A stretch of 64,000 nt of DNA from Alphaproteobacteria bacterium (GCA_024281375.1 JAJSAD010000044.1:5614-69613), one strand, 5' to 3'; positions 7,603-63,099 are shown, counted from the stretch's first letter. Numbers and translations are program-made. Notes: generated by a model from the sequence alone, not told the origin.

Positions 7603-8316
7603 TCATTTTTTTTGTTTTTTCCTCTTGTCATCCCATTTTAAAAATTCCGGATATCGTCGTTCTTTTATGAGAATGTCACGAAATCTTATTAGGGCTCTAG
7701 AGTGCCCTTTCTCGGCGGCAGCTTTAAAGGATTGCTCAGCTTCTTTTGTTGAGTTCTCCTGAGAAAGATAACAACCCAGGGTATATTGTGCCTCTGTGTC
7801 TCCTTGTGCGGCTGATTTTTCAATCCATTTTCTACCTTCTTCCTGTTTTCCTTCTTTAAAAAGAAGACTCGCAAAATTATATTGTGCTCTTGCAATTCCC
7901 TGATGGGCCGCTTTTTCGATGTGATCTCGTGCACCTTTTCGATCTCCTTCCTTGTATAAGATAAGAGCTAAATTATAGTGCGCCCTTGGGTCATCATGCT
8001 GAGCGGCGGCTTTAAAGTATTGTTTAGCCTCTAATAATTTCCCTTCCTTGAATAAAAACTCCCCAATTTCGTTTTCGACTTCTACGCGCTGTGAGTCGGG
8101 TAAGGCTTGAAGAATTTCTTTTATCTCTTCTTCTATTTCCTTTACATCCATTGTCGTTATTTCCTTAACATCAACGACATAGTTGCTAGAGGAGACAAAT
8201 TGAGTAGGGTGGTCATCTGGATTTTCATAGAAGTCGTCATAATTTGTACTTAAAACGTGAGGTGAAAAGAGGCTACATACCCCTAATAGCGTGAGAAATT
8301 GACATTTATTTTTCAT
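7603..8316 (-). CDS. secreted Sel1-repeat (TPR-like) protein
   Basis: Four tandem Sel1-type repeats (AAQHDDPRAHYNLALILYKEG, AAHQGIARAQYNFASLLFKEG, AAQGDTEAQYTLGCYL, AAEKGHSRAL). ATG 8316 (MKNKCQFLTLLGVCSLFS signal) is preferred over TTG 8385. Confidence 0.8.
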   Translation of the reverse strand: MKNKCQFLTLLGVCSLFSPHVLSTNYDDFYENPDDHPTQFVSSSNYVVDVKEITTMDVKEIEEEIKEILQALPDSQRVEVENEIGEFLFKEGKLLEAKQYFKAAAQHDDPRAHYNLALILYKEGDRKGARDHIEKAAHQGIARAQYNFASLLFKEGKQEEGRKWIEKSAAQGDTEAQYTLGCYLSQENSTKEAEQSFKAAAEKGHSRALIRFRDILIKERRYPEFLKWDDKRKKQKK

Positions 8317-8406
8317 AAGTAAAGTCCCTTTTTTTGTTGATTCTAGGGGAAAGGATATATGAAAAATAAAAACACTCAATGGCAAATTTTTATCAAAAGA
8401 GATAAT

Positions 8407-8685: not shown

Positions 8686-8814
8686 AATAACATAACCTCT
8701 TTGTCGTTATTATTTATTGTAGACATGAAATTTGACAATTGTGAAGTTTTTTATTTTTATATTGTTTTTTGACAGATTTGATGTTATGAAGACTGAAAAA
8801 GAGTGGGTATTGTT

Positions 8815-9354
8815 ATGAATTTTTCTTTAAAGAAAACTAAATCTATTTTGTTTGCAATCATATGTTGTTCTTGTTTTACTGTGAAAGCGAGTTGTTTTGA
8901 GGATCCTTGGATTTATTCATTTTATGAAGATGATGATGAGGTGGTGATAAGGCAAACAGATATTTTCACCCCTGAGGAGAGGGAAGAGACAAGAGTTGCG
9001 GAAAGGGCTGAGAAAGAAGCCCAAGAAAATGAGACTCTAGCTCAGAAAGGTCATGCTTATCGTCTTTTAAAGGCTGGAGATTATGAAAAGGCTATTGTTA
9101 ATTATCGTGAGCTTTTAAAAACGCATCATGTTCGAGGGGAAAGAATTGTGTTCTTAAAGAACTGTGCTTATGCTTGTTTTAGAATGGGACAATTTGATTT
9201 ATCATTTGCTTATTATGGGGAGCTTTTAAATACCATCCCTGAGAAACATGCTGTTTTTTTGGTTTTGTTAGACGGTATAAGAAAAAAGGGTAATTTTAGT
9301 AAAGAAACAGTTTCTGCGGCGTGTAGCCAATACTTTTTCACAGATAATTTTTAA
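8815..9354 (+). CDS. secreted TPR-like hypothetical protein
   Basis: Signal-like MNFSLKKTKSILFAIICCSCFTVKA and TPR-like helices (AYRLLKAGDYEKAIVNYRELLK). ATG 8815 is preferred over GTG 8803. Confidence 0.55.
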   Translation: MNFSLKKTKSILFAIICCSCFTVKASCFEDPWIYSFYEDDDEVVIRQTDIFTPEEREETRVAERAEKEAQENETLAQKGHAYRLLKAGDYEKAIVNYRELLKTHHVRGERIVFLKNCAYACFRMGQFDLSFAYYGELLNTIPEKHAVFLVLLDGIRKKGNFSKETVSAACSQYFFTDNF

Positions 9355-9366
9355 GAGGATTTTGAT

Positions 9367-10038
9367 ATGTTTAAAAATATAACCCTTTCTATTTTGATGA
9401 TTTTGATGTGTTCAGGCAAAGGGCAAGCGACATTTCTGACAACTGAGCAAATGGAAGAAGCAAACAATTTATTACGAACCCTCGATACATTAAGTATTGA
9501 AATGTTGAATATTGATCCCGATGTTCAACGTATTTTAATATTTGGTGACGTTCAAGATCCCTTTCACTTTAATCCAATTTCTCCTAATCCTCTCGAAGAA
9601 ATGAAACGGGATGGATCATATGCTTATCAAATGTTACAAGAAGAACGTTTTGAAGAAGCGGGAAAGTGGTATGAAAAGGCGTTATGTTGGACAGGCGATG
9701 TGCCCGCTTCTTATGGTTACAGTGCAGGATATGTTTTTTTAAAGTTGAGGAATTTCGAGAAGTCTGTTTATTTCTATGACCTCGCGTTCAGAAAAAATCC
9801 TATAAAAGTTGGAAGCGCCCTTACCAATGCGGGTATTGCCTTTTATAACGTGAAAAATTATAAAAAAGCGACCTCCTACTTTCATCAGGCTCTTGTCTTA
9901 AGAGAAAATCTGATCAGGAGAAATACCGCTTATAGAGACAATTTTTTAAAAGCTTTTGGTTTATATCAGGGAAAATCTTATTTAGAGGCCTCAACTCTCT
10001 TTATAAAGATTTTACTTTCTATGGGAGATGATAGCTAA
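9367..10038 (+). CDS. secreted TPR-repeat protein
   Basis: Signal MFKNITLSILMILMCSGKGQA. TPR units YQMLQEERFEEAGKWYEKAL, GYVFLKLRNFEKSVYFYDLAFRKNP and AGIAFYNVKNYKKATSYFHQAL. Confidence 0.65.
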   Translation: MFKNITLSILMILMCSGKGQATFLTTEQMEEANNLLRTLDTLSIEMLNIDPDVQRILIFGDVQDPFHFNPISPNPLEEMKRDGSYAYQMLQEERFEEAGKWYEKALCWTGDVPASYGYSAGYVFLKLRNFEKSVYFYDLAFRKNPIKVGSALTNAGIAFYNVKNYKKATSYFHQALVLRENLIRRNTAYRDNFLKAFGLYQGKSYLEASTLFIKILLSMGDDS

Positions 10039-18584: not shown

Positions 18585-18620
18585 TATTTTTTTTTAAAAG
18601 TTAACAGATTAACCATTCTG

Positions 18621-18636
18621 TTAACTTTTTGTTAAC
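18621..18636 (+). promoter_or_regulatory. CtrA-type box TTAA-N7-TTAAC inside a cluster of four TTAAC pentamers (18601-18636)
   Basis: TTAACTTTTTGTTAAC. Further TTAAC pentamers start at 18601 and 18609. GTTAACAG(18600-18607)/CTGTTAAC(18618-18625) also form an 8-bp inverted repeat. Confidence 0.35.
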
Positions 18637-18638
18637 CT

Positions 18639-18995
18639 TTGAGCGATACAAAGGAGAAAGAACAGGTAGGTCCCCGAAAAAACATGACTGACACCCCAGC
18701 AGGAAACAGGAAAAAGATTGCTATAGGTGAGAATGACGTCGCTCTCATCTTTAAAGAAGACGGTCATGTGGACTTATCCTTTCCGGAGATTTCGGATGAA
18801 CATGTTCCAGAGCATGTGATGGCAGCCTTGGCTCTTTCATATGCGGTGGTGGACGAAGAGTTTTTTGCGATTATACAGGATCGCTTTGCTCAGCAAGCTG
18901 CTATGACATTGGAAGAGGAAGCTCGGGAAAGAAATGCAGCAATAAAGAAAGAGGATGGATCGGTTACAACCCCTCATTTGAAAGTTGTTTCATAA
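18639..18995 (+). CDS. hypothetical acidic protein (orphan), bracketed by inverted repeat-element copies
   Basis: 118-aa ORF from TTG 18639. ATG 18684 (MTDTPAGNRKK...) is the more likely start. No recognisable domain. Confidence 0.4.
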   Translation: MSDTKEKEQVGPRKNMTDTPAGNRKKIAIGENDVALIFKEDGHVDLSFPEISDEHVPEHVMAALALSYAVVDEEFFAIIQDRFAQQAAMTLEEEARERNAAIKKEDGSVTTPHLKVVS

Positions 18996-19259: not shown

Positions 19260-20606
19260 ATGTTAAAACTTTTTTTACAGGCTTCCTTATCAACATTGTG
19301 GGACAGATTGTCTTTGCAAGGTAAATGGCAGCAAGTGGCATCGGCTATTGAGGCGGATGCCCTTATCTGTAAAGACTCCTTAGATGAAGAAACCTTTCTC
19401 CAAAATCCCCTGATGCCTCAAATCATTATAGGGAAAAAAGACTCTGTTTTATCTGAATTCTCGTGTGAGATGTCTACTCTAAATGATATTCCCGTTATTT
19501 TAGAATCTCTTGAGGAGATTATAAGTAAGAGTCAGACCCTCCATAATAAAAAAATTCCCTATAAGAATGATCTTTTCCATACAGTTCTTGCTTTTATTTG
19601 GACAAGAGGGGGATATGTAAAAGCTCATCTTTCTCATACTTTAACATATGGTTATGGCTATCCTTTTATTGAGAAAATTTGTAAAATCATAACGCCGCCG
19701 CCTTGGAAACATCAAAACCAGCAGGCGTCTCCTATCGTCGGTCTTTTGAACCACCTAGAGAAATTGAAGCTTCTTTCATCCCATATCGTGGAAAGGGCAC
19801 ATTCCTGTCCATCTTGCGCAAGTTTGAATATTATCTTGAGAGATGGCTGTTCCCAGTGTCATTCTCCTCATATTAATAAACATAGTATTGTGCATCACTT
19901 CAAGTGTGCCTACCAAGCAGCTCAACATCACTTTATTCGTAATACAGACAAGATCGTTGAGTTTATCTGCCCACACTGTCATGAAGAACTGATTCATTTT
20001 GGTGTTGATTATGATAAACCCGGTGAGGTTTTCTTATGTGAAAACTGTCATTACGAAAGTTCTGATACCGTTGTGGTTGGCAGGTGCTTGAATTGCCAGT
20101 TTAGCTTTCGCTCAAATGAGACAGCTCAATGTGTGATCAAAGATTATATTTTGACGGCCCTTGGTCATCGGGCTGTGTTGAGTTTAAGTTCAGATATTTT
20201 TTCACAGATTGAAGAGCTCGCCGATGAAAAAGACCTCATTTCTTATGCTGAATTCTTGCGACATACAAAGCACTTGTCATCTTATAAAGAACGTTATGGT
20301 CTGGAAGGTTTAATCCTTTCTATACAGATTTCTCAGACCCAAGATGAGGGGCAAACATTAGAAGACGAAACTCTGCTTCGTACCATTGGAAAGACTATTT
20401 TAAGGGATACGCGCGAGGGAGATTTGATCAGTGTGCATGACGGTCATATTTTTATTTTGATGATGGGGGCTCAAGAAGACACTAAAGAACAGGCCATTGA
20501 ACATATTCAACAGCTCATTCATGAAACCTTTAATGAAGATATTTCCGATCACATCATCATTGAGGAATATATGTTAGAGAATGTTCTAAAAGATCAGGAG
20601 CATTAA
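19260..20606 (+). CDS. multi-CxxC zinc-ribbon protein with C-terminal degenerate GGDEF-like domain (I-site retained); candidate c-di-GMP receptor
   Basis: Five CxxC pairs between residues 183 and 279 (CPSC, CSQC, CPHC, CENC, CLNC). The C-terminal ~140 aa align by eye to GGDEF domains (DYILTALGHRAVL ~ D.LTGL.NRR.F). The motif TREGDLISVHDGHIFILM corresponds to RxxD-N5-GGDEF, with RxxD intact and GGDEF replaced by DGHIF. Confidence 0.6.
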   Translation: MLKLFLQASLSTLWDRLSLQGKWQQVASAIEADALICKDSLDEETFLQNPLMPQIIIGKKDSVLSEFSCEMSTLNDIPVILESLEEIISKSQTLHNKKIPYKNDLFHTVLAFIWTRGGYVKAHLSHTLTYGYGYPFIEKICKIITPPPWKHQNQQASPIVGLLNHLEKLKLLSSHIVERAHSCPSCASLNIILRDGCSQCHSPHINKHSIVHHFKCAYQAAQHHFIRNTDKIVEFICPHCHEELIHFGVDYDKPGEVFLCENCHYESSDTVVVGRCLNCQFSFRSNETAQCVIKDYILTALGHRAVLSLSSDIFSQIEELADEKDLISYAEFLRHTKHLSSYKERYGLEGLILSIQISQTQDEGQTLEDETLLRTIGKTILRDTREGDLISVHDGHIFILMMGAQEDTKEQAIEHIQQLIHETFNEDISDHIIIEEYMLENVLKDQEH

Positions 20607-21898
20607 TGGAAACGGCTTATGATTTTTTTACAAACCAAACCACTGACTCCTTTATTAGAAATTACTGGATTGTGGTTTTTGTGGAGATCCCTCGTTTTTT
20701 TATGGGGGGGCTTCTGGTTATTTTCAGTATTCTCTTTTTTAAAAGCAAAGGTCAGACACCTGAAAGGTTAAACCGGATGGGAGCACAGATATTGAAAAAA
20801 GGCGTTAGTATTATTATTGCCATGCATAACGAAGAAGAAGCCATATGCCGAGCCCTTTCTTCTTTAAATGAACTTTGTACAGAGAATAAAACAATTATCG
20901 TCGTTAATGATGGGTCGACAGATGACTCACACAACGTTTGCTTAAGCCTCAAGAAAAAAGGGTTGATCCAACATTATATTTATAATGAATCCAGAGGCGG
21001 GAAGGCTGCTGCCGTTAATTTAGGCATTAGATATGTGAAAACCGATTTTTTTGTTGTGATGGATGCGGATACTTCCTTTGATCGAGATGCCTTAAATATT
21101 GCAGCCGCTTATTTTGAAGATTCCCACGTAGGGGCCGTCGGGGGAAATTTGGCTGTTCGTAATTATAACGATAATTTAATCACACGAACACAACAAATAA
21201 ATTACCTTCTGTCTATTACGCTTGGAAGAATTGTTCGTGATATGCTTGGGTTTTACTTTGTGGCTTCTGGTGCTTTTAGTATGTATAGAACCACAGCTAT
21301 TCATCAGCTCGGCGGCTGGGGATTTGGTCCCGGTGAAGATGCTGATATTGCCATACGCCTGCGCATTGCAGGGTGGACTGTGAGATTTGCTTTTTTTGCT
21401 ACAGGACAAACGGCTGTTCCTGACAGCGCACCAGGACTCATCAAGCAGAGAATGAGGTGGGATCGATCCCTCATTCGATTAAGATATCGCAAATATCTAG
21501 GGCATGTTTTAAATCCTTTTCGAGCTTCGTTTAAACTTCCTCTGGCCCTCAGTTTTTTCGATATTTATTTCTTTACAGCTCTCCATCCTTTTTTATTCGT
21601 TGGGTTTGTCACGGAAAAAGTTGTCTTGTATGGGCCATCAGCACTCCTATTTATCATCACAACTATGTTTTTATTTTTGATTATAGATACCTTTAAAATC
21701 TTAATGGTTTTTGCGTTATTACGTTCTCAATATCATCAATACTCTTTATTGTTGTACGTTCCTTATTATACATTTTATAATATTTATTTTTTACGTTTCG
21801 TAAGACTATTTGCCGTTTGCCATGAACTTATTTTTAGGGGATCTTACAAGGATGATTATGTGCCTAAAAAAGTTAGAGATAAAATAAAAAGATATTAA
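20606..21898 (+). CDS. processive family-2 glycosyltransferase (PgaC/IcaA/NodC/BcsA-class membrane synthase)
   Basis: VNDGSTDDS, GGKAAAVNLG, the DxD motif VVMDADT, GPGEDADI and the QxxRW motif KQRMRWDRS. One N-terminal and several C-terminal TM segments. The start overlaps the upstream stop (TAATG). Confidence 0.85.
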   Translation: METAYDFFTNQTTDSFIRNYWIVVFVEIPRFFMGGLLVIFSILFFKSKGQTPERLNRMGAQILKKGVSIIIAMHNEEEAICRALSSLNELCTENKTIIVVNDGSTDDSHNVCLSLKKKGLIQHYIYNESRGGKAAAVNLGIRYVKTDFFVVMDADTSFDRDALNIAAAYFEDSHVGAVGGNLAVRNYNDNLITRTQQINYLLSITLGRIVRDMLGFYFVASGAFSMYRTTAIHQLGGWGFGPGEDADIAIRLRIAGWTVRFAFFATGQTAVPDSAPGLIKQRMRWDRSLIRLRYRKYLGHVLNPFRASFKLPLALSFFDIYFFTALHPFLFVGFVTEKVVLYGPSALLFIITTMFLFLIIDTFKILMVFALLRSQYHQYSLLLYVPYYTFYNIYFLRFVRLFAVCHELIFRGSYKDDYVPKKVRDKIKRY

Positions 21899-23062
21899 AT
21901 GAAACAGATAAATAATCAAAAAACAGCCTATAGAATTAAACGTGATAAACGGTCGTTCTCACTAAAATTTGGGCGTTACCTCTATCTCTTTGTTATTGCT
22001 CTTCTTTTTCTGTGGATTTTTCACCTAACCTTTTCCTTTTTATATTTATTAGATGGAGACGGTTTTTTGACGGCAGATAGTGAAATTGTTGCTTTTGAGT
22101 ATGACACTTCTCTGGAAACGATCCTTGTTGAGAATGGAGATGACGTTAAACAGGGGCAAGAACTTTTCAGGTATGATTCGTCTGACTATCGATTGCAGTT
22201 GGTTGATCTTCTTTTTAGACAAGTTAATCTGCTACAAGATTTTTCTGAAACGGGCGTGCATTTAAAGAAAATTGATGCCCAAATAGCCAGTACGAAAAAA
22301 TACTTAGGTGTTGCGAAAGGTATTGTGGATAAAATAAAAAAACTTGAAAAAAGGGAGTTGATATCCAATAGGCGTCGAAGCATAGAATACATGCGCTATT
22401 TTGATGCTCTCAAAGAATTTGAGGATTATACGGCGGAAAAGGGCGGTCTTTCTGCCCAGCACCATCAAATTAAGCAGAAATTACAGATGGTTGCAAAAAA
22501 TGTTACACACTTAGTGGATTCTTTTCATGAGGGGGTGGCCCGAGCCCCCATGGATGGTGTCGTTGGTGACTTAGAATTAGAACCAGGCTCTGTTGTTGAA
22601 AAATCTGAGCCTGTTTTGCGGATATTTTCAAATCTCCGTTACCTTCTTGTTTATTTTAAAAGTTCGTCTGTTTCAACAAAATTGGAGGATATTGTGATTG
22701 TTCATATTCCAGGAAAAGGATTTCATTTTGGAACGGTTGTGGACAGGGATCGTGTTGCCTCTTCAATTCCTGAAGAAATAAAACCAAAATTTCGCCCCGC
22801 AGAACGTCGCCGTGCCATGATCGTGATGATGGACCAAAAGGTTTTACGAGCGTCCCCCCTTATGAAGTCAATTCATGTCTACAAACCCATGGGCTTAGAA
22901 TCCCTTGTTGCTTTGTTTGATATTAAACGGGAGCACCACAAGGAATACAAAGCTTTCTTAAAAGAGCGCAAAAAACGTTTCGAAGATGTTCGCTCTAAAC
23001 ACTCACAATCAATGGCCGCCCTACATGATAAAGCCCGTGCTATAAAAACTTTTTCCGATTAA
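21899..23062 (+). CDS. HlyD-family periplasmic adaptor (membrane fusion protein)
   Basis: N-terminal TM helix YLYLFVIALLFLWIFHLTFSFLYLL. Split barrel-sandwich halves (VENGDDVKQGQELFRYD and RAPMDGVVGDLELEPGSVVEKSEPVLRI) flank a long coiled-coil region. The ATG directly abuts the upstream TAA. Confidence 0.8.
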   Translation: MKQINNQKTAYRIKRDKRSFSLKFGRYLYLFVIALLFLWIFHLTFSFLYLLDGDGFLTADSEIVAFEYDTSLETILVENGDDVKQGQELFRYDSSDYRLQLVDLLFRQVNLLQDFSETGVHLKKIDAQIASTKKYLGVAKGIVDKIKKLEKRELISNRRRSIEYMRYFDALKEFEDYTAEKGGLSAQHHQIKQKLQMVAKNVTHLVDSFHEGVARAPMDGVVGDLELEPGSVVEKSEPVLRIFSNLRYLLVYFKSSSVSTKLEDIVIVHIPGKGFHFGTVVDRDRVASSIPEEIKPKFRPAERRRAMIVMMDQKVLRASPLMKSIHVYKPMGLESLVALFDIKREHHKEYKAFLKERKKRFEDVRSKHSQSMAALHDKARAIKTFSD

Positions 23063-35381: not shown

Positions 35382-38095
<2,714 letters not shown>

Positions 38096-38178
38096 TCAAG
38101 GCATAACCTCCCTTTCTTAACCTTTTCTTAACCCTTTTCTTCCTAGGATGACACGATTATAGAATAAGGAAAATTAAC

Positions 38179-38663: not shown

Positions 38664-39260
38664 TCATATCAAGCACCCAAGCTGAAGTGTGGCCTGATTT
38701 TGACGCCCGTCATAAGCAGAATCTGCGAGAATTGTTTCGACACGAGGACACCATTTTTTCATCTTCTCACCAAGAGGAATCACCATATCTCGATCTTGAA
38801 TGCCTGCTGAAGTCACTTTTGTGGCTAAAATTAATCCAAGAGTATCAACCATAATATGACGCTTGCGCCCATTTATACACTTATAACCATCAAACCCTTT
38901 TGATATTTTTTTTCCAGACCGGCTTTTAACGGATTGACTATCTATAATAGCAACGGAAGGAGAAGAGGTTTTTCTAATGTTTGTGCGAACGTCTTGCCGA
39001 AAAGCAGACATCATTTCCTCTAAGGCACCGCTATTGCGCAATTTTCTTAGATGACCGTAAACCGTTTTCCAGTGAGGAAATTCCTTCGGCGACATCCGCC
39101 AACTACAGCCACTACGTGTCATATAGAGTATTGCATTCCAGTGTTCACGAAGGCGAGCTGAAGGCGGACGACCCTGCTTATTGTACTGATCTTTATAAAA
39201 ATAATGAAGGCGCTCCCACTGAGAATCAGTAAGGTCACTTGGGTATCTTTTTTCTTGCAT
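38664..39260 (-). mobile_element. IS5-family DDE transposase gene, 3'-decayed remnant
   Basis: The N-terminal YPSDLTDSQWERL...GRPP...NAILYMTRSGCSWRMSPKEFPHWKTVYGHLRKL region is DUF4096-like. DDE residues lie in AIIDSQSVK and ILADSAYDG. The frame ends at a TGA. The same frame continues with decayed similarity (RFVTKKIWDLRR) and another stop, and the catalytic E region is not recognisable. Confidence 0.7.
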
Positions 39261-40787: not shown

Positions 40788-42356
40788 ATGATCATTCAGT
40801 CTGAAACGACTGCACCCTTTACGCCTGCTTTTAGCTCCTTGCGTAAACTCTTTTGGCCCATTCATCGTCGCGAGCTTAAAAAATTCCTCCCTATGACCCT
40901 TATTATGTTTTGCGCGCTTTTCAATTACACGCTCTTGCGTAATATGAAGGATGCGCTCGTCATTACAGCCTCGGGGCCTGAGGTCCTCCCCTTCTTAAAA
41001 GCCTTTGTGATCTTGCCTTTTTCTCTACTCATTGTGGCCGGCTATGCGAAGTTATGTAATGTTTTTGACCGACAAAAAGTCTTCTATATTGTGATTTCAG
41101 TCTTTGTTGGCGTTTATATTTCCTATGCGTTGTTCATTCACCCCAATATTGAATACCTCCACATGGACCCCAAACGCCTTAAAGAGCTCCAGGAAACGTA
41201 CCCTAATTTTCAGCATTTCTTCTCGGTTATTGCCAATTGGAGCAGCAGCCTTTTTTACCTGTTTGCAGAGCTTTGGGGAGCAACGACCATCAGCCTCATG
41301 TTCTGGCAACTGGCCAACGAAATCACCCGGGTCCAAGAAGCCCGGCGTTTTTATACCATGTTCGGATTACTGGGGCACTTTGCGCTAATAGCAGCCGGAA
41401 AACTCGGGAAATCCCTTTGTGATATTCGCCATACCTCCGCGAGTGCTGATGAAGGATGGACCTATTTTATCAACTATAATATCGTGGCTATTGTGATTTC
41501 TGCTGGACTTATTATGCTCATTTATTGGTGGATGAATCACCGCGTTTTAACGGACCCGAAGTACTATGATGAATGCAATAAGATCGCGTCCAACAAAGCC
41601 ATCAAAACAAAGCTTTCCCTCGCGGAAACAATAAAATATGTTAGTCAATCTAAATACTTAGGCTATATTCTTCTTATGGTTATTGGCTATGGCCTTGCTA
41701 TGAATTTGTCAGGTATCTTGTGGAAAAAGCAGGTGCAAATTCTCTATCCCAATCCCCTTGATTATGCCAATTTTCTAGCAGAATTCGCCGTATGGGTTGG
41801 GTTCATTACCATCACCCTCATTTTTTGTCTCAAAGGAATGGTCGAGCGTTTTGGCTGGTATCGAGCCGCCATGGTCACGCCCCTTATTGTCGCGGCAACT
41901 GTCATTCCTTCCTTTATCTTTATGTTCTTTCAAGAGGACATCACTCCTCTTTGTTCCTGGACAGGTTGCACGGCGCTGACCCTTGCCGTTACCATTGGGG
42001 GAGCCCAACAAATCCTGAGCAAAAGTGGCAAATATTCCATGTTCGACCCCACAAAAGAGATGGCCTACATCCCCCTTGATCAAGAGCTCAAAATAAAAGG
42101 AAAAGCTGCTGTTGATGTTTCTGGGTATAGTCTTGCCAAAGCCAGCGGAGGCTATATCGCAGGCGCCCTCCTGGTTATCACAGCCGCAAGCGACTTGATG
42201 GTCATTGCGCCTTACTTAGCAGCCATTGTTATTGCTATTGTTATTGTGTGGATTATCGCCGTTAAGAAACTGAGTTTTCTATACCGTAGCCTTGTTAACA
42301 AAGCCAAACCCCGGGATGTACAGACCTTTACCAATCCAGAGAAAGTTATTAGATAG
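40788..42356 (+). CDS. tlc: ATP/ADP (nucleotide) translocase, Tlc/NTT family
   Basis: 522 aa and 12-TM-like. The N-terminus LRKLFWPIHRRELKKFLPMTLIMFCALFNYTLLRNMKDALVIT is typical of Rickettsia/Chlamydia NTTs. Confidence 0.9.
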   Translation: MIIQSETTAPFTPAFSSLRKLFWPIHRRELKKFLPMTLIMFCALFNYTLLRNMKDALVITASGPEVLPFLKAFVILPFSLLIVAGYAKLCNVFDRQKVFYIVISVFVGVYISYALFIHPNIEYLHMDPKRLKELQETYPNFQHFFSVIANWSSSLFYLFAELWGATTISLMFWQLANEITRVQEARRFYTMFGLLGHFALIAAGKLGKSLCDIRHTSASADEGWTYFINYNIVAIVISAGLIMLIYWWMNHRVLTDPKYYDECNKIASNKAIKTKLSLAETIKYVSQSKYLGYILLMVIGYGLAMNLSGILWKKQVQILYPNPLDYANFLAEFAVWVGFITITLIFCLKGMVERFGWYRAAMVTPLIVAATVIPSFIFMFFQEDITPLCSWTGCTALTLAVTIGGAQQILSKSGKYSMFDPTKEMAYIPLDQELKIKGKAAVDVSGYSLAKASGGYIAGALLVITAASDLMVIAPYLAAIVIAIVIVWIIAVKKLSFLYRSLVNKAKPRDVQTFTNPEKVIR

Positions 42357-45815: not shown

Positions 45816-46433
45816 ATGATTAAAATATTTACCTTATTATCCATAATAACTTTAACGACCTTCACTAGTTTTTCAGCACAGGCCTCTGCCTCAGCGTCAG
45901 CCCAAGAAGAAGCCTCTGATAGATCTTATGTTCGCCAAGCGCCCTCTATTCAATTTTCTGACCTGAAACCGGCTCATTTAGAATTTAAAGAATCTACCAT
46001 TCATCTTGGGGATCAAACATGGTGCTTGCATTGGGTGGGACAACAATATCAACCCATTACAGCCACTTACCCAGAAGGTCAATATGACATTAGTGTTAGT
46101 CTTGTTGAGGATATCGGCCTTCATTCAGCAACTTCAGGTCCTAAATTTGCGACCTATTCTATTAAAGCCATACCAAAAGATGGGTCTGTTATTAAAAATA
46201 CCTTTTTACACTTTCACTTAATGCTTCCAATGGAATGTTCTGGTCATAGTGCAGCAAAAATGTACGATAACAAAGAATTTGAAGGGTACGATGCAGATTA
46301 TGATACACCTGCTTCTGACTCAGAATCGGAATCTGACTCTAGCTCTGACGATGAAGCCGCCCAAGGTGGATATGTGGATTTCGCGGATTTAAAAAATCGT
46401 CTAAGGGATCATCGCTCTTACCCTCTTGGATGA
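45816..46433 (+). CDS. secreted hypothetical protein, paralog B, with acidic Ser/Asp tail
   Basis: Signal MIKIFTLLSIITLTTFTSFSAQA. Motifs DQTWCLHW and PMECSGHSAAKMYDNKEF, with the tail SDSESESDSSSDDE. A TTGACA-N17-TAGGAT promoter candidate lies at 45778-45806. Confidence 0.6.
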   Translation: MIKIFTLLSIITLTTFTSFSAQASASASAQEEASDRSYVRQAPSIQFSDLKPAHLEFKESTIHLGDQTWCLHWVGQQYQPITATYPEGQYDISVSLVEDIGLHSATSGPKFATYSIKAIPKDGSVIKNTFLHFHLMLPMECSGHSAAKMYDNKEFEGYDADYDTPASDSESESDSSSDDEAAQGGYVDFADLKNRLRDHRSYPLG

Positions 46434-47389
46434 GTTTTTGCATAGACCTTAGCCAAATGGCTAGGGTCTATTTTTGTATAACGCTGAGTTGTGGAGAGTG
46501 AGCTATGCCCTAAGAGTTCTTGAATAGAACGCAAATCCGCCCCTCCTTGCAACAGATGAGTTGCAAAGGAATGACGCAGCGCATGAGGCGTTGCTGTTTC
46601 CGGTAATCCCATACTCAAGCGCAGCCGCTGCAATTGACGTTGAGCAACGGCCGGATTTAAGGGCCCTCCCCGTTTTCCTATAAAAAGGGGAGCACTGGGG
46701 GTGTGTTGCTGGGGATGCAACTGAATATAATCCTCAACTCTCTCTTTTACCTGAGGTAATAAGGGGACAAGACGCTCTTTTTTACCTTTTCCTTTAATGG
46801 TAAGAAAACGCCCCCCCTCTTTCATGCCATTAATATCCAGGGAAAGAGCCTCAGAAATCCGCAATCCACACCCATATAGCAAGGCAAACAAGGCTTGATC
46901 TCGGGCCTCTACCCAAGGTTCCTGTTCCTCCAAAGAGTTTTCAGACGTCAGAGCAATGGCCTCATCTTGATTTAAGGGCCGGGGAAGGCTATCCAAGAAT
47001 TTTGCAGCTTTTAGAATAAGAATAGCTTGGTTTTCAATATTATGATGTTTTTTAAGGTATTTAAAAAAGGTCTTTAAAGATGAAACCGCTCGGGCGTTCG
47101 ATCGATGACTCCCCCCCTCCCCTAAACGATTAGCTAGAAAGCTGCGAAAATCTCGTAGATCAAGTCTCGATAGGTCATTTAGTTTGAGAGCCGTCCCTCG
47201 ATGGTCTCTTTGAAAAACACAAAAACTCTTTAAATCATGGAGGTAATTTTTCACTGTATGGTCTGAAACTCGGCGTTCGAAGACCATATTCTTAATCCAC
47301 AAGGAAATAGCTTCCCTTAAATCAGGAGCCACAAAATCATAAAAAGGAGCAAGAAGTATGTCAATGTTCATAGAAACATTATTCCACAA
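46418..47389 (-). CDS. tyrosine site-specific recombinase, XerC/XerD family
   Basis: ARDQALFALLYGCGLRISE, HALRHSFATHLLQGGADLRSIQELLGHSSLSTTQRYTKI (R-H-R-Y catalytic set). Confidence 0.85.
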   Translation of the reverse strand: MWNNVSMNIDILLAPFYDFVAPDLREAISLWIKNMVFERRVSDHTVKNYLHDLKSFCVFQRDHRGTALKLNDLSRLDLRDFRSFLANRLGEGGSHRSNARAVSSLKTFFKYLKKHHNIENQAILILKAAKFLDSLPRPLNQDEAIALTSENSLEEQEPWVEARDQALFALLYGCGLRISEALSLDINGMKEGGRFLTIKGKGKKERLVPLLPQVKERVEDYIQLHPQQHTPSAPLFIGKRGGPLNPAVAQRQLQRLRLSMGLPETATPHALRHSFATHLLQGGADLRSIQELLGHSSLSTTQRYTKIDPSHLAKVYAKTHPRG

Positions 47390-48553: not shown

Positions 48554-49929
48554 ATGACCTATATAAAAAATCAACAAGATGGTACCTCCTCCCATAGTGA
48601 GAAAGCCATTCCGAACACATTAAAACAAACAATTAGGGGCTGGATGGTTGTTGCGTGCGGTGCCTTGTTTTATATGTATCAGTTCATGATTCGCGTTTCT
48701 CCTAATATTATGAATGACGAACTCATGATGACTCTCTCCATTGATGCGGCGGCTCTTGGAGGGATTATGGGCGTTTATTATTGGTCTTATACAGCCATGC
48801 AAATTCCCCTAGGCATAACCATGGATCGCTTAGGTCCCCGATTTTTCTTATGTGGCGCAGCGCTTCTCTGTTCCTTTGCCAGTTATCTTTTCGGCCATAC
48901 AACGGATGCCTTTATTGCCGGCTTTGCTCGTTTTTGATGGGGGCCGGATCGGCTTGTGGGCTTATTGGGGCTATTAAACTCGGAACCATTTGGCTCGAAC
49001 CAAAACATGTGGCTAAGGTCACCGCCATGACGATGCTTTTTGGCACAATCGGAGCGACCCTTGGTGGCGCGCCCCTCAAAATACTTCTCTTAAAAGTTGG
49101 CTTGACTCATATGATGGAAACCCTTTCATTGATTGGTGTTGCCGTTGCCATTATTATCTATTTTGTGGTCAGCAATGGACCCGACCTCGATCACCGAGAT
49201 GAACTCCCTGACCTTTATGCCAATCGAAACCCCCTGATTGATATCGTCAAAATAGTCAAAACACCTCAAGCTTGGGTTGTCGCCATTTACGGCATGATTA
49301 TGTATATCCCTATTACGACAATAGGAGTCGTCTGGGGGGTATCCTACGTCGAACATGCCGTCGAGACATCGGAAACCATTGCGGCTTCCGTGGTATCAGC
49401 CATGTTCTTAGGGGCCGCTGTGGGAAGCCCAGCATTCGCGTTTCTCTCAGATTTCCTAAAAAAACGAAAACTGCCCATGCTCCTTGGAACCATTATCACG
49501 AGCAGTGTGTGGTTCGTAATCTTCTTGGCTGATCTCCCCTTAAGCTGGCTCTATGTCCTCTTTTTTATTGCAGGTTTTGCCTACACAGCTAAGGTCCTCA
49601 CCTTTGCCAGCATTGTTGAAATTATGCCCCTAAAAATGAGCGGTATTTCTTTAGCTTTTGTCAATATGATTGTCATGACGACAGGCATTATCTTTCACCC
49701 CATTATTGGGGCTCTCATTGATTATCATTGGGATGGGCAAATGGCAGCTTCCGGCATTCCAGCCTACACCACCGAAGATTATCAATTCGCGCTTCTCATC
49801 ATTCCTATTTGTCTTATAACCTCTGTGATCGTTCTGTGGTTCATGAAAGAAACCCACCCAGAACGTAAAAAGACAGACCACAGAGTCCCCCAAGAATATG
49901 GTGCCATTATCGACACAGATGTCTTGTAA
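48554..49929 (+). CDS. MFS transporter, split by a 1-nt deletion in a T-run
   Basis: ORF A ends ...FIAGFARF-TGA (48935-48937). The next frame reads ...SFLMGAGSACGLIGAIKLG... through to 49929. One extra T in TTTTT (48931-48935) restores GFARFLMGAGSACG. Confidence 0.8.
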
Positions 49930-50687: not shown

Positions 50688-52019
50688 TTACGCAGCAGAA
50701 TTTTTCTTAGCAGCCTCTGCTTCTTCAACGATTTCAGAAAGTCTGCGATTTAATTCAATAAAGGCCTCATTAATGTCTTCTGACGTTTTAGAAATTTTTC
50801 CAGAGATTTCTTTTGTTTCCCGCGCTTTTTCATTAATCTGTTCAGCCCTTGATTTACTTTGTTCGGACTCTGCAGAAACACCTTCAATGTGATTCGCAAT
50901 GTCAGACGTTGCCGCATTTTGCTCTTCAACGGCTCCCGAAATAATCGTCGCGATTTCATTCATCTCGTTTACCGTACTATCAACAGACTTAAAAAGTTCA
51001 GCAGTTTCATTAATGTTTCCCTGAATCACTGTCACTTGACTCGTAATTTCTTCTGTTGCTTTTTCCGTTTGGTTCGCAAGATTTTTCACTTCTGAGGCCA
51101 CAACGGCAAAGCCCTTACCGGCCTCCCCTGCCCTCGCAGCTTCAATGGTTGCATTCAAAGCCAACAAGTTAGTTTGAGAGGCAATTTTGTTAATCATTTG
51201 AATGACATCGCCAATGGTTGTGGCACAGGTAACCAAATCATCAATCTTGCCCTGAGCCATTTGAGTCTTATTAACGGCTTCTCCTGTAATACCAGAGGAC
51301 CTGGCAACCTGATCACTGATTTCTTTAATGGCTTCTCCAAGCTCTTGTGAGGTCTCCACAACAGATTTGATCTTTTCTTGGCTCCGCTCAACAGCCTCAA
51401 GGTTTTCTCGGGATAAAGTTTCAATAGATCCGGATATTTTTTGAGACATATCTCCAAGGTCACTTGAGGCCCCTTGAATATTTTCTTTAGCAAAAGTAAA
51501 GGCATCGGTTATTTTAGAACTAATATCATTCAATTGGCGCTGCATGCCTTCTTCTTGACTAGAATCCATATAGGTACTCAATGCCAAATCCATATCAAGG
51601 AGGGCAGCTTTTATGGTTGCTTCAAGGGCAAGTTCTAAGTCTTTTGGATTTTTATTAAGGGCGCCCACAAGAACCTTTGCGATATTACTTAACGCAATGG
51701 CATAGCCTCCGATATACCACTGAGGTTTCAAGTCAACTTGACCATGAACCTTTCCTATTTTTATGATATTTTCAAGGTACGCTTCATTAAACTCTCCAGA
51801 AAAAAGATTAAGCCAATGTCTTCTTTGAGCCGCCTTAGGCTCAACAGTACCATTGGGGAATTTTTCGACCAAATGCTCGTAGGTCGCCACATGAGCATAA
51901 AATCCTTCTAAAATAGGGTCGATATTTTGCTCAAGAGCAGAGGCATTTTTCTTGAGAGTTTCACATAATTTTTCGTCTAGTTGAATAAAATCTAAACGTT
52001 TTTTTAGATCAATTGACAT
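50688..52019 (-). CDS. globin-coupled methyl-accepting chemotaxis protein (HemAT-like)
   Basis: The N-terminal sensor-globin-like region ([33 protein letters not shown]) contains a candidate proximal His. The C-terminal MCP signalling hairpin is [36 protein letters not shown]. Confidence 0.75.
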
Positions 52020-52072: not shown

Positions 52073-52088
52073 GTTAATAAAACATTAA
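52073..52088 (-). promoter_or_regulatory. CtrA-type box TTAA-N7-TTAAC upstream of the MCP gene
   Basis: The minus strand reads TTAATGTTTTATTAAC, ~55-70 nt upstream of ATG 52019. Confidence 0.35.
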
Positions 52089-56057: not shown

Positions 56058-58436
56058 TTAAGCCCTGATTGAAATAACTTTATTTTTCGAAATAATCTGA
56101 TTTTGCAAGTTTTCGAATATGTTTTTATGGGCCATTTCCTTCGAAATTAAGAGAAGAGTTTCCACCAAAGGAAGAGGCCTGCTGAAATAATAACCTTGGA
56201 TAAGATAACATCCCATTTCATAAAGCATATCCAGTTGCTCTTTATGTTCAATACCTTCGGCAATAACATCGATGTTTTGAGATTTTGACAAAGCAATAAT
56301 GGCCTTGATCAATTCAAGGTTTTTTGAGTCAACGGTCATTTTATCAACAAATATTTTATCAATTTTCAAATAGTCAAAATCAAACTTATTAAGATAGGAA
56401 AGACTTGAGTATCCTGTCCCAAAATCATCAATCAACACTTCTACGCCCATATTTTTTAACTTCATAAATTTGTTATAGGTTTCCTTTGTGGAATCCAATA
56501 ACAAGCTTTCTGTCACCTCTACCTTTAGGGAACTTGTTGGATTTGGTGAATTTTGAATAAGTTTCAGAATAGAGTTAAAATGCTTATCATTATGAAATTG
56601 CTTAACGGACATATTGATAGAAAAAATAGCTCCTGGATAATCAGGAAGCGTTTTTCGCAAATTTTCCATATCTCGCGAACACAACTCAAAACATTTTTTC
56701 CCTAAGTCCAAAATAAGGCCCGATGACTCTGCTAGCTTAATAAAAATCGCCGGGGGGATAGAGCCTAATTCCGGATGGTGCCACCGACACAAAGCTTCAA
56801 AATAAGCAATACGACCAGATTTAATATCAACAATAGGCTGATAATACATTTCAATATCATCTGTTTTGATCGCTTCCTCTAAATCTTTTAACATTTTTAT
56901 TTCAGAATTTATTTTCTCAACAAATTGGGAATCAAAAACACAAATACGTCCTTTACCTAATTTTTTGGCTTTATACATCGCCTTATCAGCTTTGTATAAA
57001 ATATTATCCTCTTGTTCATGGCTACTATCCAACATCAGTAAACCAATGCTTACAGAGTTCTTTACCTCCGTATTTTCAAGGTAAAAAGTCCGACAGCAAT
57101 TCTCTAAGATACGTTCAGCAATTTCATAAGCCTCTCCTTCATCCTCAACGGAATCCAGTAAAACAACAAATTCATCCCCCCCGAATCGTGATACCGTATC
57201 GCTTTGGCGCACACAAGCCGAAATGGACTTTGCGATTATTTTTAAGGTTTCATCACCCAAAGCATGTCCATGTTTATCATTAATATCTTTAAAATCATCC
57301 ACATCCAAGAAAATAACCGACGATTTATCAGAATCAATCCGTGATAAATTTTTCAGATTATGATGAAGGCGATCAACAAATAAATCTCTATTGGCAAGCC
57401 CCGTCAAAGAATCATAAAAAGCGGCATGATGAAGGGACTTAATAAATTTTTCTTGAGTCGTGAATAAATGAAGGCGTTCTAAAACAATAGACAACTGGGA
57501 TGAAAATATTTCTATAGCTTTACGAGATAATAAATGATCTTCAGTCCCTTTAAAGGAAAAAAATTCAATAACAGCAACGAGTTCATTCGAGATTTTTATA
57601 GGTATAAAGAGGCATGTTTTCACGACCTTAAAGAAAGAAGTCAATTTTTTAGATTTCTTTGAAAAATTTTCTTTCCTCAGAAAAAGACATTTACTTTTTT
57701 TACTTTTTAAGTCTTGAATTTTTGGAGAAAAGTCGCCTTCTAAATCCCTCCTATAGGTATAAATAGTATCATTTTCCTCTCCATCACTGTTAACATAGAG
57801 GTCATCCAATTTTTTTAAAAATGCGTCACTCTGTATATTATGGAAATAAGCTGCGTCCATGCCTATATAACGCAATGTTAAAAGCAACATATCAACAATA
57901 GCTTCTTTGAAATCATTATTACGGCTTGAGGCTCTAGACATATGATAAAAATAAGTGGAATGCTTCTCACGTTCATCAATATAAGAAGAAAGAGAAATGC
58001 TAATATCTATTAAAGTGCGATTTGTTATATGATTTAGGATTTTTTCTACACGTTGCGGATCTGTAGAGTGGTCTTCGAAAACTTTATTTTGCAGGTAGGT
58101 AATAATTTTTTTATAACCCAAAATATAAAGCTCTGAAGAAATATTATGCTCATCATGTTTTTGACCAATTTGTATTGATTTTTCTCGAACGACATTGATA
58201 TCAGCACTTAAGAGCAACTCTATCCAATGCTGACTTTGTTTTTGAATAAGGACCTTACGTTTAGCGGCAGAAAAATGAAATATTTTTTGTGTTTCTAAAA
58301 AATCATAAAGCTCGATCAAAGCCCCTTTGATATGTTTTTTTAAAAAATGTTCTAAAATAACATATTCATCTTTATTGCTCTCAAAATAACAAGAGTCAAT
58401 AAAATCATAGAAGCGACTCCGAGTACCGTTATTCAT
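56058..58436 (-). CDS. GGDEF-EAL protein with N-terminal sensor-globin-like and GAF-like regions
   Basis: Intact RQSD-N5-GGDEF (VRQSDTVSRFGGDEFVVLL) and intact EAL signatures (YFEALCRW, DDFGTGYSSLSYL, KIDKIFV, IAEGIE, QGYYFSRP). The N-terminus (QSQHWIELL, IQIGQKHDEHNISSELYILGY) parallels the globin region of the MCP at 50688-52019. Confidence 0.8.
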   Translation of the reverse strand: MNNGTRSRFYDFIDSCYFESNKDEYVILEHFLKKHIKGALIELYDFLETQKIFHFSAAKRKVLIQKQSQHWIELLLSADINVVREKSIQIGQKHDEHNISSELYILGYKKIITYLQNKVFEDHSTDPQRVEKILNHITNRTLIDISISLSSYIDEREKHSTYFYHMSRASSRNNDFKEAIVDMLLLTLRYIGMDAAYFHNIQSDAFLKKLDDLYVNSDGEENDTIYTYRRDLEGDFSPKIQDLKSKKSKCLFLRKENFSKKSKKLTSFFKVVKTCLFIPIKISNELVAVIEFFSFKGTEDHLLSRKAIEIFSSQLSIVLERLHLFTTQEKFIKSLHHAAFYDSLTGLANRDLFVDRLHHNLKNLSRIDSDKSSVIFLDVDDFKDINDKHGHALGDETLKIIAKSISACVRQSDTVSRFGGDEFVVLLDSVEDEGEAYEIAERILENCCRTFYLENTEVKNSVSIGLLMLDSSHEQEDNILYKADKAMYKAKKLGKGRICVFDSQFVEKINSEIKMLKDLEEAIKTDDIEMYYQPIVDIKSGRIAYFEALCRWHHPELGSIPPAIFIKLAESSGLILDLGKKCFELCSRDMENLRKTLPDYPGAIFSINMSVKQFHNDKHFNSILKLIQNSPNPTSSLKVEVTESLLLDSTKETYNKFMKLKNMGVEVLIDDFGTGYSSLSYLNKFDFDYLKIDKIFVDKMTVDSKNLELIKAIIALSKSQNIDVIAEGIEHKEQLDMLYEMGCYLIQGYYFSRPLPLVETLLLISKEMAHKNIFENLQNQIISKNKVISIRA

Positions 58437-58505: not shown

Positions 58506-58521
58506 TTAAAAAAGCCTTAAC
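58506..58521 (+). promoter_or_regulatory. CtrA-type box TTAA-N7-TTAAC in the divergent promoter region of the GGDEF-EAL gene
   Basis: TTAAAAAAGCCTTAAC, ~70 nt from ATG 58436 (minus) and ~105 nt from 58626 (plus). Confidence 0.35.
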
Positions 58522-62220: not shown

Positions 62221-63021
62221 CTAAACAGCTTTAGCCTTTGGAGCTTCAGGAGAAAGAGGGGCACCGTCTTTAGGAGAAGACTTTTCAGAAGCAGCCTTTT
62301 CTTTGGCCTTCCCACTAGAAACGGGATTACCAAATTCATCTTCATCGCGGGGTTCGCGCAAGACATAGCCTCGTCCCCAAACGGTTTCGATGTAGTTCTT
62401 TCCATCTAAATAATCGGCCAATTTCTTACGAAGCTTACACACAAATACGTCGATAATTTTGAATTCAGGCTCTTCCATACCACCGTAGAGGTGATTCAAG
62501 AATACTTCTTTGGACAAGGTCGCCCCTTTACGAATGGCAAGAAGTTCAAGGATAGCATACTCACGGCCCGTTAGACGAACTGGTTCTCCTTTAGCTTCAA
62601 CGGTTTTGGTATTGAGATCAATTTTCAGTTCTCCAACGGTAATAAGAGAATTGGAATGCCCTTGGGAACGACGGATGATAGCACGCACACGGGCCACAAC
62701 TTCCTCTTTATTAAAGGGCTTTGTAATATAGTCATCTGCCCCAAAACCAAGGCCTTTAATTTTATCATCAATATCCGCCAAGCCCGATAAAATAAGAACT
62801 GGAGTGGCAACGCGCACAGCCCGCAGACGGCGTAAAATTTCATATCCATCAATATCCGGGAGCATTAAATCAAGAATAATAAGATCATATTCATAGTGAC
62901 GTGCGATTTCTAAACCATCTTCACCGATGGCTGTCGTATCACAAACAAACCCTTCCGACTTTAAAGAAAGCTGAAGAGTTTTTGCTGTTGCTTGATCGTC
63001 TTCAATTACAAGAACACGCAT
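62221..63021 (-). CDS. ctrA: cell-cycle response regulator CtrA (OmpR family) with a Lys/Glu/Pro-rich C-terminal extension
   Basis: MRVLVIEDD...[22 protein letters not shown]...[29 protein letters not shown]. Winged helix [12 protein letters not shown]...[14 protein letters not shown]. ~40 extra C-terminal residues. Confidence 0.85.
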
Positions 63022-63083: not shown

Positions 63084-63099
63084 TTAACAATACATTAAC
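63084..63099 (+). promoter_or_regulatory. CtrA-type box TTAA-N7-TTAAC upstream of ctrA
   Basis: TTAACAATACATTAAC, ~65-80 nt upstream of the ctrA ATG (63021, minus). Confidence 0.4.

Follow-up and report, generated by a model that had tools for sequence, protein, structure and literature searches.

The stretch of 64,000 nucleotides analysed here (Alphaproteobacteria bacterium, GCA_024281375.1, JAJSAD010000044.1:5614-69613; the whole stretch is called the window below) carries, on its minus strand, a gene for a 792-residue protein in which a sensor globin and a middle domain precede the two catalytic domains of cyclic di-GMP (c-di-GMP) turnover, GGDEF for synthesis and EAL for hydrolysis. Which way does such an enzyme work, what might it respond to, and what could it control? 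We favour, with a probability of about 0.6, a ligand-dependent switch between diguanylate cyclase (DGC) and phosphodiesterase (PDE) activity that would resemble DcpG and would be subject to product feedback at the I-site. This reading is preferred because a cytoplasmic input module precedes two catalytic domains that oppose each other and are both intact, and because DcpG offers a precedent. The protein is probably soluble and dimeric. The gene and its domains are listed here with positions counted from the first nucleotide of the window.

56058 to 58436, minus strand: complete open reading frame (ORF) of 792 amino acids with an ATG start; domain order sensor globin, GAF, GGDEF, EAL.
57966 to 58355, minus strand: sensor-globin domain (Protoglobin, PF11563), residues 28-157, assigned by Pfam, by a profile search of the PDB and by an AlphaFold2 (AF2) model compared with Foldseek; position B10 is Tyr44 and the proximal F8 is His94.
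57459 to 57914, minus strand: predicted GAF-fold middle domain, residues ~175-326, assigned by an AF2 model, Foldseek and sub-threshold Pfam matches of relatives; a long helix (residues 127-172) connects it to the globin.
56949 to 57422, minus strand: GGDEF diguanylate cyclase domain, residues 339-496, assigned by Pfam; A-site GGDEF (419-423) and I-site RQSD (410-413) intact.
56175 to 56885, minus strand: EAL phosphodiesterase domain, residues 518-754, assigned by Pfam; full set of catalytic motifs intact.

An identical protein (P0001) is on record at NCBI. Domain profiling, which an earlier note on this DNA had called for, placed Protoglobin, GGDEF and EAL each above its Pfam gathering score: Protoglobin reached 37.2 bits against a cutoff of 25, with profile positions 25-157 of 158 covered, GGDEF 147 bits and EAL 241 bits. 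That note had also claimed that the GGDEF domain with its RQSD I-site and the EAL signatures are intact, and Pfam, a motif scan and alignment with a solved structure all bore this out. A regular-expression scan found RQSD-TVSRF-GGDEF at 410-423, the RxxD I-site preceding the A-site by the canonical five residues, together with the metal and substrate motifs DVDDFKDIND (378) and GHALGD (390). The EAL set is complete, with EALCR at 547, SINMS at 606, EVTE at 640, DDFGTGYSS at 670, LKID at 690, EGIE at 727 and QGY at 747. The best match of residues 331-792 among solved structures was the GGDEF-EAL part of Pseudomonas aeruginosa MorA (4rnh, E = 5.7e-88), in which the motifs GGDEF, EALxR, N, ExxE, DDFGTGYSS, KxD, EGxE and QGY all align column by column; MorA differs in being a membrane protein with PAS sensors and in having neither a globin nor a GAF domain. 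Judged by these motifs and by the MorA alignment, the protein has the residues expected of an active GGDEF diguanylate cyclase as well as those expected of an active EAL phosphodiesterase. The catalytic motifs are likewise intact in its relatives P0002, P0123 and P0126.

The two activities are combined under a globin in DcpG, the published precedent from Paenibacillus dendritiformis; this globin-GGDEF-EAL enzyme is PDE-active in the Fe(II)-O2 form and DGC-active in the Fe(II)-NO form, the ligands working by shifting which domain dimerises (PMC10882959; PMC10118264). We compared the protein with DcpG through the published description of its domain logic. The two share the order of sensor globin, GGDEF and EAL, and both catalytic motif sets are intact in our protein. 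They differ in the GAF-fold domain of ~150 residues that would lie between globin and GGDEF, and in their sources, DcpG coming from a Firmicute and our protein from a Holosporales-like alphaproteobacterium. A close relatedness of the two sequences is unlikely, because the N-terminal module has only three relatives with E below 1e-10 in a library of representative proteins. In a search of the literature, DcpG was the only bifunctional globin-GGDEF-EAL enzyme found (PMC10882959, PMC10118264). Outside the small family of our protein, no Protoglobin-GGDEF-EAL protein was seen among the best 120 of 3,418 full-length matches, nor in the search with the N-terminal region.

Many GGDEF-EAL proteins with intact motifs act as PDEs only, and this counts against a two-way enzyme. 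The protein could be a one-way phosphodiesterase, in which GGDEF would serve as an allosteric module that binds GTP or c-di-GMP while the globin/GAF module gates EAL, by a logic like that of DosP with a globin replacing the heme-PAS domain. In NCBIfam the protein is most similar to phosphodiesterases (Tlr1612-family, DibA, GepA, PdeR-like and DosP), and DosP structures are among the best PDB matches; however, every NCBIfam score is far below its equivalog cutoff, and MorA, the best PDB match, has both motifs intact. MorA itself has both activities. The A-site, the metal and substrate residues and the I-site of the GGDEF domain are intact and conserved family-wide, in contrast to the regulatory GGDEF domains of DosP type, which are degenerate. 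That the O2-bound form of DcpG is the PDE-active one (PMC10882959) would also fit a phosphodiesterase. Weighing these points, we judge a one-way PDE unlikely and keep the ligand-dependent switch. The label of 'c-di-GMP source' in the earlier note nevertheless had to be given up: given the intact EAL domain and the example of DcpG, where O2 favours PDE and NO favours DGC, the enzyme may be a net phosphodiesterase, and since its net direction cannot be read from the sequence, it should not be called simply a source. Nor does the sequence predict whether O2 would raise or lower c-di-GMP.

The input side of the proposed switch begins with the N-terminal domain, whose assignment as a globin with retained heme-ligand residues is supported by Pfam, by a profile search, by the alignment of the ligand residues and by the folds that its model matches. 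An exhaustive HMMER scan of the N-terminal 335 residues against 1.84 billion representative proteins gave 20 matches at E ≤ 1e-3. Only three were below 1e-10, namely P0002 (from a TARA ocean scaffold), the fragment P0125 and P0126 (782 residues), the last of which has the architecture of our protein yet only 24% identity across the N-terminal region. The other matches were ordinary sensor globins. When the N-terminal region was aligned with family members and with the ordinary sensor globins found by search (alignment A1), Tyr44, Gln67, His70, Trp71, Gly91, His94, Tyr104, Tyr108 and Asp144 were invariant. The A1 profile, searched against the PDB, matched HemAT (1or4, 1.4e-15), a Vibrio globin-coupled sensor (GCS; 7o0i), GsGCS (2w31) and AfGcHK (5ohe), and it placed Tyr44 on HemAT Tyr70 (distal B10) and His94 on HemAT His123 (proximal F8). 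Both residues are kept in the protein and in all four full-length members of the family. For an AF2 model of residues 1-160 (mean predicted local distance difference test score, pLDDT, 84.9; predicted TM-score, pTM, 0.79), the 24 best Foldseek matches in the PDB were all heme sensor globins (AfGcHK, DosC, BpeGReg, GsGCS, HemAT and AvGReg). Their TM-scores were 0.44-0.82, or 0.64-0.82 excluding one AvGReg chain (4uii_B); AfGcHK 5ohe gave 0.76/0.80, and DosC 4zvb gave 0.77/0.82 with a root mean square deviation of 2.6 Å.

The earlier note had seen a resemblance between this N-terminus and the globin of a chemoreceptor encoded in the same window:

50688 to 52019, minus strand: globin-coupled, HemAT-like soluble methyl-accepting chemotaxis protein (MCP); Protoglobin 121.7 bits, MCPsignal 113.7 bits.

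The resemblance held, since QSQHWIELL and IGQKHDEHNISSELYILGY are present, and BLASTP within the window aligned the two globins with 25% identity over 95 residues (E = 8e-6). HemAT of Bacillus subtilis and the window MCP belong to the same sensor-globin family as our protein, with the heme-ligand residues aligned, but their output is MCP signalling in aerotaxis and not c-di-GMP turnover.

Several points speak against a heme sensor. A phmmer search of the PDB with the N-terminal 335 residues gave nothing at E ≤ 1, and the single-sequence globin match is weak (37 bits). The residue before Tyr B10 (position B9) is Leu, where DosC has Phe, and the Trp of the common 'P(R/K)WY' motif of the G helix is replaced by Leu. 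Sensors that have a globin fold and no heme exist, among them RsbR, the fatty-acid-binding globins and photoglobin (PMC8717448). The N-terminal domain could be such a non-heme sensor or a dimerisation module, similar to RsbR or to the fatty-acid-binding globins, in which case the GAF domain would be the true ligand sensor, if there is one. Apart from the weak match to Protoglobin, the failure of phmmer in the PDB and the great divergence of the module, with its three matches below 1e-10, this alternative is favoured by the decay of heme residues within the family, with Cys at position B10 of P0125 and Gln at position F8 of P0128, a single-domain globin. The non-heme sensors pXO1-118 and RsbR do appear in the fold search, but they and pXO2-61 rank lower than the top 24 matches, all of which are heme sensor globins; the A1 profile, too, matches heme GCS structures first, and His94 and Tyr44 are kept in the protein and in all four full-length members. 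We therefore regard a non-heme module as decidedly improbable and infer, from alignment and model, that the N-terminal globin binds heme. As specific identities, photoglobin, RsbR and the fatty-acid-binding non-heme globins were each set aside as unlikely, with His F8 and Tyr B10 kept and heme GCS structures matching best.

Of the label 'globin-like/GAF' in the earlier note, the globin part was found by Pfam, whereas the GAF part was not found by Pfam in the protein itself and came from sub-threshold matches of relatives and from a fold search. Residues about 160-335 gave no Pfam match at E ≤ 10. The same region of P0002, P0123 and P0126 matched GAF, GAF_2 or GAF_3 at E values of 0.004-0.05 (12-18 bits against cutoffs of 22-29), and the match of P0126 spans nearly the entire profile. 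An AF2 model of 340 residues (pLDDT 77.2, and 66-89 within the GAF region; pTM 0.66) comprises the long helix of residues 127-172, an alpha/beta unit with strands at 195-200, 213-216, 251-253, 272-282 and 285-295, and an exit helix at 305-326. The 13 best Foldseek matches of this model, and most of the 38 matches at E ≤ 1e-3, were GAF-containing structures, including PDE5A (3lfv), NifA (8jrc, TMt 0.66), 3p01 (TMt 0.66-0.67) and the GAF domains of cyanobacteriochromes and phytochromes; for the single GAF domains 3p01, 8jrc, 3hcy and 5m82, TMt was 0.64-0.67. The search with this model was dominated by GAF-plus-helix proteins, returned no globins, and did not list the structure of the DosC middle domain (4zvc) among its matches. 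The sub-threshold GAF matches of relatives and the predominance of GAF domains in the fold search indicate that the middle domain is a divergent GAF domain, and not a helical middle domain of the DosC/BpeGReg type. A point against the GAF assignment is its dependence on a medium-confidence model (pLDDT 77) made from only 5 sequences.

The nature of the middle domain bears on the analogy with DosC and HemDGC that the earlier note had drawn. With DosC/EcGReg, BpeGReg, HemDGC and AvGReg the protein shares a sensor globin with Tyr B10 and His F8 and a GGDEF domain with an I-site, and in the model the globin fold superposes on those of DosC (4zvb) and BpeGReg. Enzymes of this type have a conserved helical middle domain, in which a His-Lys pair in a pi-helix (His223/Lys224 in EcGReg) is essential for activity (PMC5549716). 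Our protein appears to have a GAF fold in place of that domain; moreover, GGDEF is neither its sole nor its terminal output, a complete EAL domain following it, whereas the DosC-type enzymes have no EAL domain. Because both the helical middle domain and the GGDEF-only output fail, the protein should not be filed in the DosC/HemDGC family. The analogy thus stands for the globin and the active-type GGDEF domain and falls for the middle domain and the presence of EAL, and DcpG is the closer analogue. Three features set the protein apart from the known kind: its globin-GAF-GGDEF-EAL order, an N-terminal module that is extremely rare, and a conserved CtrA box in the promoter. Its parts, and the mechanism in general outline, are familiar all the same. 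How bacteria turn gas levels into lifestyle decisions has been studied closely in globin-coupled c-di-GMP enzymes, and since a GAF domain would here replace the canonical helical transducer, the protein would be a natural experiment on the relay of a heme signal to two opposing catalytic domains.

In the ligand-dependent switch that we favour, the sensor globin would bind O2, NO or CO at a heme iron that has His94 as its ligand, and Tyr44 would face it from the distal side. A conformational change would then travel along the long helix of residues 127-172 into the GAF domain, which may act as a dimeric relay or provide the site for a second ligand. From there the signal would reach the GGDEF domain, with its RxxD product feedback, and the EAL domain, and would set the balance between synthesis and hydrolysis of c-di-GMP, making the enzyme a switch between DGC and PDE and not a pure cyclase. 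CtrA would probably control transcription of the gene through the conserved TTAA-N7-TTAAC box. The possible downstream targets are flagellar motility and a cassette encoding a TackOD1/degenerate-GGDEF protein, a GT2 and a membrane fusion protein (MFP).

How the gene might be controlled could be followed further by comparison. The earlier note had pointed to a CtrA-type box in the promoter region; the box is there, conserved in all orthologous promoters, and ctrA itself lies in the window, 4 kb from the gene:

58506 to 58521, plus strand: CtrA-type box TTAAAAAAGCCTTAAC (TTAA-N7-TTAAC), 70-85 nt upstream of the ATG of the gene; TTAAAAAAGCCTTAA(C), which without the final C covers 58506-58520, at 70-84 nt.
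52074 to 52088, plus strand: TTAA-N7-TTAA box, 55-69 nt upstream of the start of the globin-MCP.
63084 to 63098, plus strand: TTAA-N7-TTAA box, 63-77 nt upstream of ctrA; candidate site for autoregulation.
62221 to 63021, minus strand: ctrA, response regulator of the OmpR family (REC and Trans_reg_C); 372.4 bits against the NCBIfam CtrA equivalog NF045991, cutoff 350.

On the strand opposite the gene the box reads TTAA-N7-TTAAC, which is the full CtrA consensus. Matches to it are short AT-rich strings, a point to be set against a regulatory role. In the window as a whole, TTAA-N7-TTAA had 7 exact matches against 3.7 expected, which is not significant, and the count with one mismatch was at expectation (68 against 70.7). 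A scan for sigma-70 promoters and terminators near the gene was of no help (15, with 11.7 expected). Six of the seven exact boxes, however, fall within intergenic DNA, which makes up 13.6% of the window; dinucleotide shuffling of that DNA gave an expectation of 1.42 (P about 0.001). The remaining box overlaps a TTG start codon that is itself doubtful. Boxes precede our gene, the globin-MCP gene, groEL (43126), ORF 18639 and ctrA. In homologues, the box was found 57-92 nt upstream of the start at 7/7 full-length loci (L001, L002, L003, L006, L008, L009 and L010). When orthologous promoters were aligned, no block of the promoter region was better conserved than this box, and the longest invariant stretch reads TTTGTTAA.G.TTT.TTAAGG. 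At the distant locus L006, which encodes P0126, the box is the sole match in 7 kb, against 0.09 expected.

The intergenic enrichment, the positions of the boxes and their conservation across species are good comparative evidence that the box is a functional cis-element and that the two globin sensors are co-regulated. CtrA is predicted to bind this box, and transcription of the gene is probably under CtrA control, in a regulon shared with the HemAT-like MCP and with ctrA. CtrA autoregulates in Caulobacter; the box in front of the window's ctrA is a parallel and suggests autoregulation here as well. The presence of the box throughout the small family makes it directly testable whether c-di-GMP is tied to cell-cycle or developmental control and to oxygen sensing, a function that the HemAT-like chemoreceptor shares.

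By eye, the gene had looked strongly AT-rich to the author of the earlier note, and it is: its guanine-plus-cytosine (GC) content of 0.329 is the lowest among the 56 ORFs of the window (mean 0.434, sd 0.040, z about -2.6). The gene could thus be a horizontally acquired, decaying passenger that has no current role. The homologue at L001, however, likewise has a lower GC content than the DNA that flanks it (0.355 against 0.414), so low GC looks like a trait of the gene family and is not proof of recent transfer. Location is a further point. In all marine relatives the gene lies between a divergent gene of ~450 codons and a convergent one of ~540-556 codons (L001 4284-9845; L003 2755-8375; L008 8050-13729). 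The first of these neighbours encodes a PGM_PMM-family mutase in L008-L010 and is without a Pfam call in L001, and the second encodes a HAMP-HisKA-HATPase kinase in L001 and L007-L009; the flanking genes in L003 were left unannotated. The copy in the window lies between a gene of the HU family, accompanied by small ORFs, and a lipoprotein gene. The location of the gene is therefore not conserved. This unlike context would suit a passenger, as would a relative in L007 that is shortened to globin and partial GAF and the pseudogene-like split ORFs and insertion sequence (IS) fragments elsewhere in the window. Yet the reading frame is unbroken over 2,379 bp, every catalytic and heme-ligand residue is preserved and the promoter box is conserved, and we consider a passenger without a role highly improbable.

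The shortened relative in L007 (89-1039) is P0125, with 316 residues and with Cys in place of Tyr at B10; its neighbour is the HAMP/HisKA kinase that also adjoins the full-length relatives. P0125 represents either a copy in decay or a sensor that stands alone.

The target to which the earlier note had tied the enzyme is a group of three genes elsewhere in the window:

19260 to 23062, plus strand: candidate effector cassette of three genes for a TackOD1 protein of 448 amino acids, a processive GT2 and an HlyD/MFP-like protein, putatively linked to the globin-GAF-GGDEF-EAL gene.

The first protein of the cassette had been described as a degenerate-GGDEF receptor. Its Pfam label is TackOD1, a Cys-rich metal-binding domain of unknown function (PMC5847659), and its similarity to GGDEF is marginal, its tail being the second-best match in the window to a locally built GGDEF hidden Markov model (HMM; E = 0.004). 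The part of that description that stood is the RxxD motif: the tail reads REGD-LISVH-DGHIF, with RxxD five residues before the degenerate GGDEF position, and R385, D388, G395 and F398 are kept unchanged by both of the full-length homologues, the only two that a search of 5.8 billion clusters found. The order of the three genes is kept at both homologue loci (L004 3639-7385; L005 6001-9846), and the GT2 is most like PgaC/IcaA (147.6 bits, below the equivalog cutoff). From the RxxD spacing, the GGDEF-like tail, its invariance in homologues and the conserved gene order it is reasonable to infer that the TackOD1 protein could be an I-site c-di-GMP receptor like PelD or PssE. The degenerate GGDEF tail that keeps RxxD beside genes for a PgaC/IcaA-like GT2 and an MFP-like protein resembles receptors of the PelD/PssE type; the candidate differs from them in having TackOD1 and not GAF or transmembrane domains.

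A dedicated circuit would run from O2 or NO sensing by the globin through c-di-GMP to the degenerate-GGDEF I-site and from there to activation of the GT2 synthase. The receptor-like tail with its invariant R385-x-x-D388, the PgaC/IcaA-like GT2 and the conserved gene order are consistent with such a circuit; furthermore, the 64-kb window encodes no GGDEF/EAL protein other than our enzyme, PilZ was not seen among its proteins, and both the gene and the cassette are below the mean GC of the window. TTAA-N7-TTAA boxes, then GAAAATTT, lie upstream of the cassette in L004 and L005. In the window, four TTAAC half-sites are clustered at 18601-18637 (gTTAACagaTTAACcattctgTTAACtttttgTTAACc), a candidate strong CtrA site directly upstream of ORF 18639-18995 (118 aa, unannotated), which precedes the cassette. 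Because of the boxes at L004 and L005 and this cluster, co-regulation of the cassette with our gene is possible, but the cassette's own upstream region of 265 bp in the window has only a half-site. Moreover, the gene and the cassette are 33 kb apart in separate operons, the enzyme with its intact EAL domain may lower c-di-GMP, and further cyclases, of PleD type or another, may be encoded outside the window. Co-inheritance was not seen either, since the full-length homologues of the cassette (L004, L005) and the relatives of our gene (L001-L003, L006-L010) lie in different records or genomes; no metagenome-assembled genome (MAG) with both was found, a weak negative given that MAGs are incomplete and that the search was limited by word matching. 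We regard the dedicated circuit as possible but doubtful. If the enzyme did feed the exopolysaccharide cassette, the two would form a compact, for the present hypothetical, second-messenger circuit.

The organism in which the switch would operate can be judged from other genes of the window, first among them the following:

40788 to 42356, plus strand: TLC ATP/ADP translocase, 537 bits.

A TLC translocase is a hallmark of energy parasitism, and the same genome retains nuo genes, FliI and an aerotaxis receptor. The window encodes the nuo operon and FliI, and also a glycine-zipper lipoprotein of the 17-kDa-antigen type. The nearest relatives of GroEL are those of Ca. Paracaedimonas acanthamoebae (84%), a 'Holosporales bacterium' (81%) and Ca. 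Nucleicultrix amoebiphila (80%), and relatives of our protein were found in 'Holosporales bacterium UBA9215' and in an uncultured alphaproteobacterial MAG. The translocase, the affinities of GroEL and the relatives in a Holosporales MAG indicate that the organism is an uncultured, Holosporales-like, energy-parasitic alphaproteobacterium, related to endosymbionts of amoebae, that imports ATP from its host and is probably associated with protists. The Holosporales are a lineage of protist symbionts that live as energy parasites; a full-text search of the literature joining 'Holosporales' and 'diguanylate cyclase' gave two papers only, with one passing mention in each. The widest picture that can be drawn is of a very rare, so far undescribed family of dual-sensor (heme globin and GAF), bifunctional c-di-GMP enzymes, confined to Holosporales-like alphaproteobacteria that are intracellular or associated with protists, and wired to CtrA as regulator of cell cycle and development. 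An ATP-parasitic symbiont would in this way read O2 or NO in the host cell and, by means of c-di-GMP, switch between a motile, aerotactic state and a state of polysaccharide production, the latter through a likewise undescribed TackOD1-degenerate-GGDEF receptor of a PNAG-like (poly-N-acetylglucosamine-like) synthase. As a whole this picture is speculative, and we think it quite unlikely to be right in all its parts.

Other features of the window were noted in passing. A GyrA/ParC-type subunit is split into the overlapping ORFs 35382-37586 and 37532-38095 on the plus strand, the first with DNA_topoisoIV and GyrA_C and the second with more GyrA_C blades; the split reflects a frameshift, a decayed gene or faulty assembly. 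An MFS transporter is likewise split into overlapping ORFs (48554-48937 and 48781-49929, plus strand), possibly by a frameshift or as a pseudogene. A shortened transposase of the IS4/IS5 family (DUF4096 and partial DDE_Tnp_1) lies at 38664-39260 on the minus strand, with a TTAA-N7-TTAA box at 38117-38131 nearby, and a tyrosine recombinase (Phage_integrase and SAM-like) at 46418-47389, also on the minus strand. The region 323-2691 on the plus strand encodes a large terminase of T4 type (Terminase_6N/6C), followed by an N-acetylmuramoyl-L-alanine amidase with a PG-binding domain, and is a prophage or gene-transfer-agent remnant at the edge of the window. Beside it, the ORF at 2714-3619 (minus strand) for a UDP-glucose/GDP-mannose dehydrogenase apparently lacks most of the N-terminal NAD-binding domain, either because its start was mis-called or because the gene is truncated. 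Upstream of the nuo operon (8803-10038, 7603-8385), three TPR-repeat proteins are encoded with a GC content of 0.35-0.38, low as in our gene and in the cassette.

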